From Escherichia coli (GTDB lineage: Bacteria > Pseudomonadota > Gammaproteobacteria > Enterobacterales > Enterobacteriaceae): a stretch of 7,431 bases of DNA. Positions 1,190 through 4,100 of this stretch are shown here, piece after piece (within the stretch, counting starts at the first letter, position 1; every line of letters starts with the position of its first letter). The notes beneath the pieces are model-generated. The model did no database searches and was not told the DNA's origin. It saw nothing but the letters and a program-made list of their open reading frames with translations. A program made the position numbers and the translations under genes. The stretch is from assembly GCF_003334305.1 (NCBI RefSeq), contig NZ_QOWS01000047.1; one strand, written 5' to 3'.

Positions 1190-4100
1190 ATGAGTGAAGG
1201 ACCAGGCGGGCCACAGGGAGCGACCGCAGGCGGTACGCTGGCAATGCGAATGCTGTCACAGCAGGCGATGGTCGCCAGCCAGATGAAACGGGCAGCCAAC
1301 GACAAAGCCATTGCACAGATGCTGGCAGCAAAGAAGTCCGGCCCACCTGCCGCCAGGCTGGGCGATGAAATTCAGCATAAAAGTTTTCTGGGGGCACTGG
1401 CAGGGGCCGTGCTGGGGGCGATAGTGACCATCGCAGAAGGTTGCCTGATTATGGCCGCCTGTGCCACCGGCCCTTATGCGCTGGTTCTGGTGCCTGCGCT
1501 GATGTATGCCAGCTATAAGGCGAGTGATTATGTGGAGGAGAAACAGAACCAGCTTGAGTCATGGATAAACAGCTTTTGTGACACGGACGGCGCCATCAAT
1601 ACCGGTTCTGAAAATGTAAACATTAACGGAAAGCCCGCTGCCAGAGCCGCCGTCACCCTTCCCCCTCCTCCCCCACCTGGAGCAATACCTGAAGTCCCAC
1701 AGGGGGAACCCTCATGGGGTGATATTGCCACTGACCTGCTTGAATCGGCAGCGGAAAAAGCAGTACCACTGGCGAAGGCCTGGGGGAACGCTGTTATCAC
1801 CCTGACGGACAGCAATGCCGGTTTTATGGATCGCTTATGTGCAGGCACATCGCTTCTGTTTCCCGCCGGTCCGGTATTAATGGAGTTTGCCACCATGGTG
1901 GGCGGGCGTGGCGAAATCAAAAAAGACGTGGATTTCCCGGAAGCCGGTGAGGACACGGCGCTCTGCGACAAGGAGAACAAACCACCGAGGATAGCCCAGG
2001 GCAGCAGCAACGTCTTTATCAACAATCAGCCTGCCGCGCGCAAGGGCGACAAACTGGAGTGCAGCGCGGCAATCGTGGAAGGTTCGCCGGACGTCTTTAT
2101 TGGGGGTGAGCAGGTCACCTATCTGGATATCCAGCCGGAGTTCCCGCCATGGCAGAGAATGATCCTGGGAGGAATAACGATAGCCAGCTATCTTCTGCCG
2201 CCAGCAGGACTGCTGGGAAAACTGGGGAATCTGGCGAAACTGGGCAAACTGGGAAACCTGCTGGGGAAAAGCGGGAAGCTGCTGGGTGCAAAACTCGGCG
2301 CATTGCTGAGCAGAACAAAAAATGCCCTGAAAAATACGTATAACGTCCTGAAAAAGTTTATCAAAGATCCGGTTGACCCGGTAACCGGCGCGTACTGCGA
2401 CGAACGTACTGACTTCACCCTGGGCCAGACACTCCCCCTCTCCTTCACCCGCTTCCACTGTTCGGTACTGCCACTGCATGGCCTGACCGGCGTGGGCTGG
2501 AGCGATTCCTGGAGCGAATACGCCTGGGTGCGTGAACAGGGAAAGCGGGTGGATATCATCAGCCTGGGAGCCACGCTGAACTTCGCCTTCGACGGTGAAA
2601 GTGATACGGCGGTTAACCCGTATCACGCCCAGTACATCCTGCGCCGCCGTGATGATTACCTGGAGCTGTTCGACCGTGATGCCCTGAGCAGCCGCTTCTT
2701 TTATGACGCCTTTCCGGGAATGCGCCTGCGCCACCCGGTGACTGACGATACCAGCGATGACCGCCTGGCACACAGCCCCGCAGACCGGATGTACATGCTG
2801 GGCGGGATGAGCGACACCGCCAGCAACCGCATCACGTTTGAGCGCGACAGCCAGTACCGGATCACAGGTGTCAGTCACACCGACGGGATCCGGCTTAAAC
2901 TGACGTACCATGCCAGCGGCTACCTGAAAGCCATTCACCGTACGGATAACGGCATACAGACGCTGGCGACCTACGAACAGGATGCGCGGGGGCGGCTGAC
3001 AGAAGCGGATGCGCGGCTGGACTACCACCTGTTTTATGAGTACGACGCTGCGGACCGGATCATCCGCTGGTCCGATAACGACCAGACGTGGAGCCGTTTC
3101 ACCTACGATGAACAGGGCCGGTGCGTGACCGTCACCGGGGCGGAGGGCTATTACAACGCCACGCTGGACTATGGTGACGGCTGCACCACCCTGACGGACG
3201 GCAAGGGCACTCACCGTTATTACTATGATCCTGACGGCAATATTCTGCGGGAAGAAGCGCCGGACGGCAGCACCACCACGTATGAATGGGATGAATTCCA
3301 TCACCTGCTGGCCCGCCACTCCCCTGCCGGGCGGGTGGAGAAATTTGAATACAACGCCGCACACGGCCAGCTAAGCCGTTACACGGCAGCAGACGGTGCG
3401 GAGTGGCAGTACCGCTATGATGAGCGCGGCCTGCTCAGCAACATCACCGACCCTGCCGGGCAGACGTGGACACAGCAGTGTGATGAACGCGGCCTGCCGG
3501 TAAGCCTGGTGTCGCCACAGGGCGAAGAGACCCGGCTGGCATACACCGCTCAGGGGCTGCTGTCGGGGATATTCCGCCAGGATGAACGGCGTCTGGGCAT
3601 AGAGTACGACCACCACAACCGGCCGGAAACACTCACCGACGTGATGGGCCGTGAACACCACACCGAATACAGCGGTCACGACCTGCCGGTGAAGATGCGC
3701 GGCCCCGGCGGTCAGTCAGTGCGGTTACAGTGGCAGCAGCACCATAAACTGAGCGGCATTGAACGTGCTGGAACCGGCGCGGAAGGATTCCGCTATGACC
3801 GCCACGGCAACCTGCTGGCGTACACGGACGGTAACGGTGTTGTCTGGACAATGGAGTACGGCCCGTTTGATTTGCCGGTGGCGCGAACGGACGGTGAAGG
3901 CCACCGCTGGCAGTACCGCTACGATAAAGACACGCTGCAACTGACAGAAGTCATTAACCCGCAGGGCGAATCATACCTTTATGTTCTGGATAACTGCGGC
4001 CGGGTGACGGAAGAGCGTGACTGGGGCGGCGTGGTCTGGCGTTACCGCTATGACGCCGATGGCCTGTGTACCGCCAGGGTTAACGGCCTGGAGGAAACCA

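Follow-up and report, generated by a model that had tools for sequence, protein, structure and literature searches.

A Lys/Leu/Gly low-complexity tract in the postPAAR linker of an Escherichia coli PAAR-Rhs effector, a probable cationic tether between PAAR and cage

Introduction

The opening of Rhs cages and the passage of their toxins across the inner membrane of the prey are still unsettled, and a pull on the PAAR-plug linker features in all published models. Class I (Rhs) prePAAR effectors have, by definition, a single TMD region (PMC7773334). Class II prePAAR effectors of the Tse6 type, which are small non-Rhs proteins, carry a second TMD region directly after PAAR that is Gly-rich, truly hydrophobic and marked by the motif GxxxxGxxLxGxxxD (Ahmad et al. 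2020, PMC7773334).

Two Rhs effectors of known structure are the closest described systems for the linker itself. In Photorhabdus laumondii Rhs1/Tre23 (Plu0353; 7PQ5; PMC8636562), a postPAAR region sits after PAAR and before the D-P autocleavage site, and Jurenas et al. 2021 describe it as containing a conserved alpha-helix (PMC8636562). In Pseudomonas protegens RhsA (7Q97; Gunther et al. 2022, PMC8765631), a Lys/Gly-rich peptide that reads LKGGKGKF... stands 30-37 residues before the cleaved Pro, and an amphipathic 'anchor helix' stands 3-16 residues before the same Pro; the seal as published comprises residues 268-275 and includes F271. The anchor helix has been reported as unique to P. protegens among the solved cages, the S. 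bongori and P. laumondii structures lacking it. Here we describe the corresponding linker of an E. coli effector, which contains an unusually simple Lys/Leu/Gly tract.

Results

The window encodes a class I prePAAR Rhs effector

The window, the whole 7,431-nucleotide stretch of E. coli DNA that was analysed, carries on its plus strand the gene order vgrG, Eag/DcrB chaperone gene, PAAR-Rhs effector ORF. The 3' end of vgrG (T6SS spike; 7-681) was recognized from its translation, with the gene start upstream of the window, and the same DNA in strain 600468 carries the annotation 'type VI secretion system tip protein VgrG'. The eag gene (709-1170; 153 aa; DcrB/DUF1795 family; Pfam DcrB PF08786, E = 1.7e-27) is intact and immediately precedes the effector ORF; its equivalents in homologous loci are annotated 'DcrB-related protein'. 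The ORF of this type VI secretion effector (1190-5515) encodes 1441 aa as it stands; compared with an intact allele of 1599 aa, it is frameshifted near nt 5314-5320.

At the N-terminus, a prePAAR motif, AARLGDEIQH (aa 54-63; 1349-1378), was found both by the regex AARxxDxxxH and by Pfam (prePAAR_I PF25799, E = 6.5e-5). It is followed by TMD region 1 (aa 64-109; 1379-1516), the sole clearly hydrophobic region, which lies N-terminal to PAAR, has Gly-zipper character with a Pfam Gly-zipper match, is modelled by AF2 as helices 66-92 and 94-110, and reaches Kyte-Doolittle (KD) values of at most 2.1 and summed insertion free energies of +1.35 and +3.3 kcal/mol. The PAAR domain is split (aa 132-153 and aa 266-310; 1583-2119; two Pfam PAAR_motif matches) by an insert of about 100 aa that sets the E. 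coli protein apart from P. laumondii Rhs1, the alignment to 7PQ5 skipping query aa 155-254. The Rhs/YD-repeat cage begins with a DUF6531 N-terminal plug (aa 393-451; 2366-2542; Pfam PF20148, E = 6.5e-12). From aa 390 onward the AF2 pLDDT is at least 88, and the cage model (pTM 0.83) matches 7PQ5, 8QJD and 7Q97, with TM 0.85/0.93 and 40% identity against 7PQ5. With a prePAAR motif, one TMD region before PAAR, PAAR followed by the cage, and a cognate Eag (DUF1795/DcrB) gene at 709-1170 all present, the protein is a class I prePAAR Rhs effector.

A basic tract without confident structure lies between PAAR and cage

The region between PAAR and plug consists of three segments. A marginally hydrophobic helix, WQRMILGGITIASYLLPPAG (aa 320-340; 2147-2209), ends in LLPP; it has a KD of 1.6, a summed insertion free energy of +4.3 (aa 324-342), an AF2 helix at 320-335 (pLDDT 63-82) and a pN of 0 among E. 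coli alleles, and its W-x-hydrophobic-(L/V/I)PP pattern is kept in relatives. The tract follows at aa 341-373 (2210-2308), where the sequence-only reading had located it exactly: codons 341-373 on the plus strand encode LLGKLGNLAKLGKLGNLLGKSGKLLGAKLGALL. The third segment is a basic amphipathic helix, SRTKNALKNTYNVLKKFIK (aa 374-392; 2309-2365), which has a hydrophobic moment of 0.58 at 100 degrees and so qualifies as a cationic amphipathic alpha-helix, is covered by an AF2 helix at 364-390 (pLDDT 51-61), and is the position-equivalent of the RhsA anchor helix. It is hypervariable in E. coli, with at least three allelic forms.

Directly after this helix, a regex match marks a predicted N-terminal autocleavage motif, D393-P394|VDPVTG (2366-2389). 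The string DPVDPVTG (aa 393-400) fits the PV(x)3(T/S)G signature of PMC8636562, and D393-P394, which aligns with D288-P289 of P. laumondii Rhs1, is a candidate cleavage site. The tract thus occupies the postPAAR position, between the last PAAR motif match (ending at aa 310) and DPVDPVTG.

The tract holds six Lys and two Asn and no aromatic residue. A positive or polar residue occupies every third position at first (K344, N347, K350, K353, N356), followed by K360, K363 and K368, and no other 33-residue window of the whole protein has a lower entropy (2.18 bits, against a median of 3.66). In both contexts modelled, AF2 left the tract and the expected anchor helix without a confident structure. 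In the aa 1-470 model, the pLDDT is below 50 at aa 344-355 and 357-362 and the tract is partly coil; in the cage-context model (aa 310-1464), the tract scores 28-39. Helices 320-335 and 364-390, at pLDDT 51-82, border the tract or overlap its ends, and its core stays below 50.

The tract is not a transmembrane helix

The sequence-only reading had called the tract unusual for a membrane segment, which is supported, and had also put it inside a second predicted TM region, which is not: the one hydrophobic stretch in the vicinity is aa 323-343, just upstream. The tract has a mean KD of 0.62 with no 19-residue window above 1.0, and its 19-residue summed insertion free energies are +11 to +17 kcal/mol, compared with +1.4 for TMD1 (Hessa 2005 scale). 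On these hydrophobicity scales, and given six Lys and two Asn, a TM helix was rejected; the tract is no transmembrane helix and lies outside any TM region, contrary to the membrane-insertion helix first suggested.

An amphipathic alpha-helix, the other form proposed, was rejected as well, the moment at 100 degrees (0.18 overall, 0.14 in the first half) not being above shuffles for the whole tract. The maximum lies at 115-120 degrees, which is a periodicity of 3.0 residues and not 3.6, and with its low moment at 100 degrees the tract does not qualify as a cationic amphipathic (antimicrobial-peptide-like) alpha-helix. As to 'GxxxG-like', the periodic half is spaced GxxG, and GxxxG spacing occurs only at G355xxxG359, a single extra pair, and at G362xxxG366xxxG370, the tract's only three-Gly zipper, in a stretch that is not hydrophobic.

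These glycines, together with the Leu-rich composition, are what would recommend a helix with regularly spaced Lys that either spans the membrane as a second TM segment or inserts by GxxxG contacts, and both class II prePAAR effectors and another Rhs clade have a Gly-zipper hydrophobic region at the position of the tract. The resemblance to the class II region is limited to the location directly after PAAR and the Gly-richness; unlike it, the tract is not truly hydrophobic and belongs to an Rhs protein, and the class II motif has no regex match in aa 1-500. Pfam finds no Gly-zipper in the tract, though it finds one in TMD1. With the KD and insertion values, the 3.0-residue period and a pLDDT below 50 also standing against it, we regard this reading as largely refuted by the hydrophobicity analysis and very unlikely.

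The nucleotide repeat follows from the peptide and rarely changes length

About 100 bp of 9-nt near-repeats had been noted in the tract. A tandem repeat is indeed detected (2213-2257; period 9, 5.1 copies, 78% matches, score 55), but only some 45-50 bp are periodic and the remainder is merely similar in composition. Lag-9 nucleotide identity was 0.74 in the first 17 codons, compared with 0.31 +/- 0.10 in codon-shuffled controls (p ~1e-4), and 0.44 against 0.31 over the full 99 nt (p = 0.02); the periodicity analysis found the last 15 residues of the tract to be without a period-3 signal. Back-translation with the gene's own codon usage gave an expected lag-9 identity of 0.452 +/- 0.031, where 0.444 was observed, and an expected third-position identity of 0.336, where 0.333 was observed. 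Because both identities match the back-translation, there is no sign of recent DNA amplification, which was rejected as an explanation. The Leu-Gly-Lys/Asn peptide periodicity and the codon bias of the gene explain the nucleotide repeat in full: it is a by-product of a three-residue peptide period and of CTG/AAA/GGN codon choice, and it occasionally slips by one in-frame unit. No Rfam family reached its gathering score anywhere in the window. Some minus-strand ORFs overlap the tract, and these were treated as by-products of the coding strand.

The Rhs family carrying the tract is present in about 40% of complete E. coli genomes. Among the 2169 complete genomes with the tract, in which length was scored in the periodic half, at least 2163 have the standard length. 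Perfect one-unit (+9-nt) duplications were found in at least four, from three independent events in three different units; four is a lower bound, since two records at 90-95% and three at 80-90% were left aside, and the number of length-variable genomes is 4 to 6. The natural +3-aa variants, among them a +GKL allele in strain TW10828, retain the L-G-K register, and one sits in an intact gene. No one-unit contraction occurs among the 2169 genomes. Variation in copy number among alleles is present but rare, and of the 'expansion or contraction' that had been considered possible, only in-frame expansion was seen. Constraint on the tract in E. coli is moderate (pN 0.030, pS 0.088).

Beyond this set, a scan of species-representative genomes returned a single locus, on an E. 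coli-like contig in a Collinsella MAG, and tblastn against plasmids returned only E. coli copies and relatives at no more than 35% identity. A word-indexed protein search returned only short proteins, mostly frameshifted fragments of the same gene, which cannot serve for copy-number counts or enrichment.

The perfect 9-nt duplications at three tract units resemble those of slippage-type coding microsatellites and minisatellites; unlike in such repeats, changes are very rare, contractions are absent and there is no sign of a switching function. That the DNA repeat might exist as a contingency locus, changing length or frame often enough to switch or diversify the effector, could be argued from the three independent duplications, from short G4/A4 runs and from the frameshifted fragments and rearrangement end-points in and around the tract in public assemblies. 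However, those fragments came from a search centred on this region and imply no enrichment, and assembly errors may account for many of them; no homopolymer is longer than 4 nt; and the units are 9 nt, so length changes stay in frame. With 4 to 6 of 2169 genomes varying and no contractions, this idea is contradicted by the census and is scarcely credible.

Charge and layout, but not sequence, recur in relatives

HMMER aligned the E. coli protein to P. laumondii Rhs1 (7PQ5_L; E = 4.8e-49) and placed the tract opposite '...VPPSRGALKGLGKLFTKPGQGIQGVLKGAKAGAKKAKALL...' of this protein and '...LKGGKGKFLSNLP...' of P. protegens RhsA (7Q97), the latter segment being the one that contains the seal (PMC8765631). 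In P. laumondii Rhs1, as in E. coli, a W-x-hydrophobic helix ending in VPP/LPP is followed by a basic Gly/Leu/Lys-rich stretch, a basic helix and D|P, with alignable flanks; the low-complexity sequence itself is not conserved, and the Photorhabdus stretch, unlike the E. coli tract, has no regular L-G-K triplet periodicity. In all of 22 representatives, ExPxW precedes a hydrophobic helix, which is followed by a basic stretch rich in Gly/Leu, a further helix and D|P. Their stretches at the tract position do not share its sequence but have a similar basic charge and composition, and in the E. coli/Photorhabdus-like clade K+R number 11-20 and D+E 2-4. In another Rhs effector clade a hydrophobic region of Gly-zipper type occupies this position.

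These comparisons bear on whether the tract is a neutral low-complexity spacer, of which length and flexibility alone would matter and whose composition would reflect simple-repeat growth by slippage. Such a spacer would fit the lowest-entropy window of the protein, the lack of sequence conservation between genera, the lack of an AF2 structure and the tolerance of one-unit duplications in an intact gene. It fits less well with a basic charge excess that recurs in divergent relatives where no sequence is shared, with a length that at least 2163 of the 2169 E. coli genomes share, with a pN below pS, and with synonymous sites that give no sign of recent amplification. We consider it unlikely.

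A second possibility is that the tract serves mainly as an additional binding element for the Eag chaperone, in which a second EagR dimer would grip it together with the preceding helix. EagR pulled down the isolated postPAAR of P. laumondii Rhs1, which cross-links to the concave face of the chaperone (PMC8636562); the corresponding E. coli region can be aligned to this postPAAR and has an intact eag gene immediately upstream, and low AF2 confidence in isolation would suit folding upon binding. EagR binding is experimental for P. laumondii, whereas the E. coli region is known by alignment, and chaperone binding of the tract is plausible by this homology. However, the clefts of Eag chaperones are hydrophobic and imitate TM packing (PMC7773334), in contrast to a tract with six Lys and a low moment at 100 degrees. 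The NHS-type cross-linker used reacts with Lys, and a Lys-rich linker is therefore easily cross-linked. In addition, Ahmad et al. argued that a single site of Eag interaction may be all that class I effectors have (PMC7773334). As the main role of the tract, chaperone binding is possible though doubtful, and it would be compatible with a tether.

The tract as a probable flexible cationic tether

Taken by itself, the tract is a low-complexity linker of a routine kind, an ordinary element of a known architecture, and changes in its length are rare. It most likely acts as a tether or seal-linker that is flexible and cationic, and the chaperone may contact it as well. We infer this role from charge, layout and position: the tract probably forms the low-complexity core of the postPAAR linker, joining the spike-mounted PAAR to the cage, with a seal-like C-terminal third. 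In this arrangement, the PAAR cone extends to about aa 316 and is followed by the hydrophobic helix (320-340), the tract (341-373), the basic helix (374-392), D393-P394 and the plug and cage. The postPAAR region has a net charge of +11, whereas the modules on either side of it are acidic (PAAR region -11, cage -39), cage acidity in Rhs proteins having also been reported elsewhere (bioRxiv 10.1101/2024.02.26.582050). The E. coli linker is not a second membrane anchor but a strongly basic, unstructured stretch of conserved length between acidic modules.

Counting back from P394 by the RhsA distances places the seal at aa 357-364 and the helix at aa 378-391. By its distance to the cleavage site, the C-terminal third of the tract would thus correspond to the Lys/Gly-rich seal peptide and connector of RhsA, which thread through the plug into the cocoon. 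AF2 in the cage context places neither tract nor anchor helix confidently and did not reproduce the RhsA arrangement in E. coli, and the mapping of the seal therefore rests on residue counting and on alignment of low-complexity sequence. The P. protegens layout may also not transfer, given the anchor helix reported missing from the S. bongori and P. laumondii structures; RhsA has a shorter postPAAR, and its seal is built around the bulky F271, whereas the E. coli tract has no aromatic residue.

Before firing, the tract and the neighbouring hydrophobic helix would probably be covered by the Eag chaperone. This proposal puts a second Eag site in postPAAR and conflicts with the argument of Ahmad et al. 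that class I effectors may be limited to a single one (PMC7773334). Once the spike has fired, the cage would open because the tether, under tension, draws the seal out.

The regular spacing of K/N at every third position could alternatively make the tract a segment of the voltage-sensor or presequence type, drawn by the prey's potential into or across the inner membrane next to TMD1. With the spike in the prey periplasm, the inside-negative potential would pull on the tract, extract the seal and start the threading of unfolded toxin. We rate this as highly improbable; if true, toxin entry would depend on the membrane potential of the prey and on the charge and length of the tract. For the 'tug on the seal' models, the natural +3-residue alleles, along with charge swaps and length changes, provide a cheap handle.

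The tract lies in the postPAAR region of a PAAR-Rhs effector

The E. coli DNA in the window belongs to a type VI secretion locus for an effector. Here vgrG is represented by its 3' part (7-681) and is followed by a gene for an Eag-type chaperone (709-1170; DcrB in Pfam, E = 1.7e-27) and by the ORF of a PAAR-Rhs effector (1190-5515). A Pfam domain search covering the N-terminal 603 residues of the effector identified prePAAR_I, a PAAR_motif split between aa 132-153 and aa 266-310, and DUF6531 (aa 393-451). Of 5426 complete E. coli genomes, ~2170 contain this region. In strain 600468, where nt 1900-2700 are matched at 100% identity, the annotation reads VgrG, DcrB-related protein, and 'restriction endonuclease fold toxin'.

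The Lys/Leu/Gly low-complexity tract (nt 2210-2308) corresponds in frame to codons 341-373, exactly as the sequence-only reading had placed and translated it; its entropy is lower than that of any other 33-residue window in the protein. A model of the Rhs cage matched P. laumondii Rhs1 (7PQ5; TM 0.85/0.93, 40% identity) as well as other T6SS Rhs cages, and in a PDB sequence search both 7PQ5 chain L (E = 4.8e-49) and P. protegens RhsA (7Q97) aligned with the N-terminal region. The sequence DPVDPVTG (aa 393-400) conforms to the PV(x)3(T/S)G signature (PMC8636562), and its counterpart in the alignment with Rhs1 is the N-terminal autocleavage site D288-P289. The tract therefore falls within the 'postPAAR' of Jurenas et al., the region between PAAR and the D-P motif; a single paper in the literature searched used this term. 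Here, aa 317-340 hold an ExPxW motif and a helix of weak hydrophobicity that ends in LLPP; the tract (aa 341-373) comes next, and between it and the D-P site lies a basic amphipathic helix (aa 374-392; hydrophobic moment 0.58 at 100 degrees). The net charge of postPAAR is +11, between PAAR plus its insert (-11) and the cage (-39); the acidity of Rhs cages has likewise been noted (bioRxiv 10.1101/2024.02.26.582050).

Several further features of the locus were observed. The eag gene is intact, while in the otherwise near-identical strain 600468 it is split by an IS3 element (L001 2886-4771). The Rhs ORF is frameshifted at a G-run (5314-5320) that reads GGG, compared to GGGG in strain 600468, whose 1599-aa allele is intact; unless this difference is a sequencing error, the ORF is a pseudogene. 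The +1 frame continues as QTSLWGL...DPLGLQGG...IDPLGL and then into the C-terminal toxin to ~nt 5700. Because homology to strain 600468 ends at nt 5570, this toxin and the small ORFs downstream (5739-5999, 5996-6286, and 6577-6774, within 5570-7130), presumably immunity or orphan modules, differ from the restriction-endonuclease-fold toxin module of that strain. The first part of an ISAs1/ISEc1 (H-repeat) transposase gene occupies 7132-7431; strain 600468 has a copy downstream of its rhs locus, and the two are 92.7% identical. The PAAR domain is interrupted by an insert of ~100 residues (aa 155-255, nt 1652-1954) that P. laumondii Rhs1 lacks, and which includes PPPPPPP (a 9-nt TRF match at 1660-1678), and three helices predicted with low to medium confidence, among them a weakly hydrophobic stretch (aa 212-240). 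The predicted amphipathic helix before D-P (nt 2309-2365) occurs in at least three very different E. coli allelic forms (SRTKNALKNTYNVLKKFIK, GKTGKSLKSIANKVIRWVT, and GRTKNALKSAYNVVKKFIK; pS 0.42, pN 0.24) with conserved flanks on both sides, and looks like a recombined, anciently diverged cassette. In the Rhs core, TRF reported a 31-nt unit at 2808-2865 (1.9 copies, 78% matches, score 72).

The nucleotide repeat is secondary to a peptide periodicity and rarely changes length

About 100 bp of near-repeats had been described from the sequence; their place and peptide held, but only half of their extent, as the tract is periodic in its first half only. TRF confined the 9-nt array to 2213-2257 (5.1 copies, 78% matches, score 55). 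Lag-9 identity in the first half was 0.74, compared to 0.31 ± 0.10 in codon-shuffled controls (p ~1e-4), and period-3.0 power was significant for Leu and Lys/Asn (p = 0.002-0.004), while no lag-9 or period-3.0 signal was detected in the last 15 residues. Back-translation with the gene's own codon usage gave a lag-9 identity of 0.452 ± 0.031 versus 0.444 observed, and third-position identity equalled this expectation. The nucleotide repeat adds nothing beyond peptide and codon bias, and is secondary to the three-residue periodicity Leu-Gly-Lys/Asn.

Copy number does vary among E. coli alleles, though very rarely. Three spread samples of E. coli matches (35, 59, and 59 full-length rows) contained one length variant, and this +9-nt allele was used as an 80-nt query to sort all 2169 carriers. 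Tract length was standard in 2163 carriers, whereas two (ETEC1720 and ETEC1722) were identical to the query, two (88-3493 and TW10828) matched it at 96% identity, and two were left uninspected. Alignment revealed three independent perfect duplications, each of a different unit: GAATCTGGC (adding NLA) and AAACTGGGC (adding KLG), both in genes already marked as pseudogenes, and GGAAAACTG (adding GKL) in an intact annotated gene. A synthetic query minus one unit matched no genome gap-free, and hence this E. coli set holds no one-unit contraction. The suggestion of a substrate for expansion or contraction was thus borne out for one-unit duplication only. Nine standard-length alleles showed pS 0.088 and pN 0.030, with the amino-acid changes G346K, K350R, L341Q, and L364Q. 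Slippage of the repeat is possible but rare, and it preserves the frame; in effect, repeat length is constant. A contingency repeat was contradicted by these tests.

Rearrangement end-points were also seen at the tract in other strains (~2203 and 2270; P0015, P0016; H100, H36, H200). One is an IS3-family insertion directly after LLPP, one truncated product represents 302 member sequences, and in strain EC26 homology stops at nt 2270, within the tract, adjoining nfrB.

The tract is neither a transmembrane segment nor an amphipathic alpha-helix

The tract had been placed inside a predicted second TM region, which its hydropathy contradicts. Its mean Kyte-Doolittle hydropathy is 0.62, with no 19-residue window above 1.0. 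Summing the Hessa 2005 biological scale over 19 residues gives +11 to +17 kcal/mol, compared to +1.35 and +3.3 for the hydrophobic region TMD1 (aa 64-109) and +4.3 for the adjoining upstream segment, aa 324-342. Class I (Rhs) prePAAR effectors have by definition one TMD region and small, non-Rhs class II effectors two (PMC7773334); a 'TM region 2' misfits the class of this protein.

An amphipathic alpha-helix fared no better. The hydrophobic moment is maximal at 115-120 degrees (period 3.0) and only 0.14 at 100 degrees in the periodic half, where Lys would therefore spiral round an alpha-helix rather than line one face. Gly spacing in this half is GxxG, with GxxxG restricted to G355xxxG359 and G362xxxG366xxxG370. 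AlphaFold2 modelling of aa 1-470, built on a 105-sequence alignment, gave short broken helices with pLDDT < 50 at aa 344-355 and 357-362, and in a model built from residues 310-1464 of the intact allele, in which the cage reached pTM 0.83, pLDDT was 28-39 throughout as far as aa 387. A second TM or GxxxG-type helix is largely contradicted by these tests.

[quoted passage not shown]

A search of 1.84 billion representative proteins yielded 330 matches at E <= 1e-10, and postPAAR was compared in 22 representatives with both landmarks locatable. Its length is 55-125 residues, in two flavours. In a clade with the E. coli alleles, Photorhabdus-like proteins, and others, just one helix of marginal hydrophobicity leads into a low-complexity stretch that is basic and rich in Gly/Leu/Ala (K+R 11-20 versus D+E 2-4; for example RGLFRGLGKLFFRGPKAVMKGLGAG and RGAMKLGVKGMVRGLAKGGGALLKGGARSLKGAG), while a second clade has a truly hydrophobic Gly-zipper region at this position (KD > 2). 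Between genera, the basic stretch keeps charge and composition, but not sequence. Both the linker and its effector class are known, and the triplet repeat is a form of this linker particular to one lineage. A purely neutral spacer appears unlikely, and a linker that senses prey membrane potential through its periodic positive charges is very improbable. Separately, a 1154-nt contig (JAIJJM010000894.1, L002) assigned to a Collinsella sp. MAG encodes the E. coli Rhs region at 99% identity, most likely because the bin is contaminated with E. coli DNA.

In P. protegens RhsA, the chain emerges from the PAAR domain, which is absent from the model, and runs through a small gap next to the cork, where it forms the 'seal' peptide (residues 268-275, part of LKGGKGKFLSNL); a pull on this linker was proposed to remove the seal and open the cage (PMC8765631). 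Counting back from P394, the equivalents are aa 357-364 for the seal and aa 378-391 for the helix, and the seal also falls opposite the tract in a HMMER alignment that crosses low-complexity sequence. The tract is a disordered, Lys/Leu/Gly-rich stretch between the LLPP and basic helices, and on this counting and placement we read it as a putative flexible cationic tether, whose C-terminal third would lead into the plug. [quoted passage not shown] Alternatively, and compatible with a tether, the tract may be contacted by the Eag chaperone, as isolated postPAAR was pulled down and Lys-directed cross-links were obtained in Photorhabdus (PMC8636562). However, Eag clefts are hydrophobic, and the upstream LLPP helix is the more likely chaperone partner.
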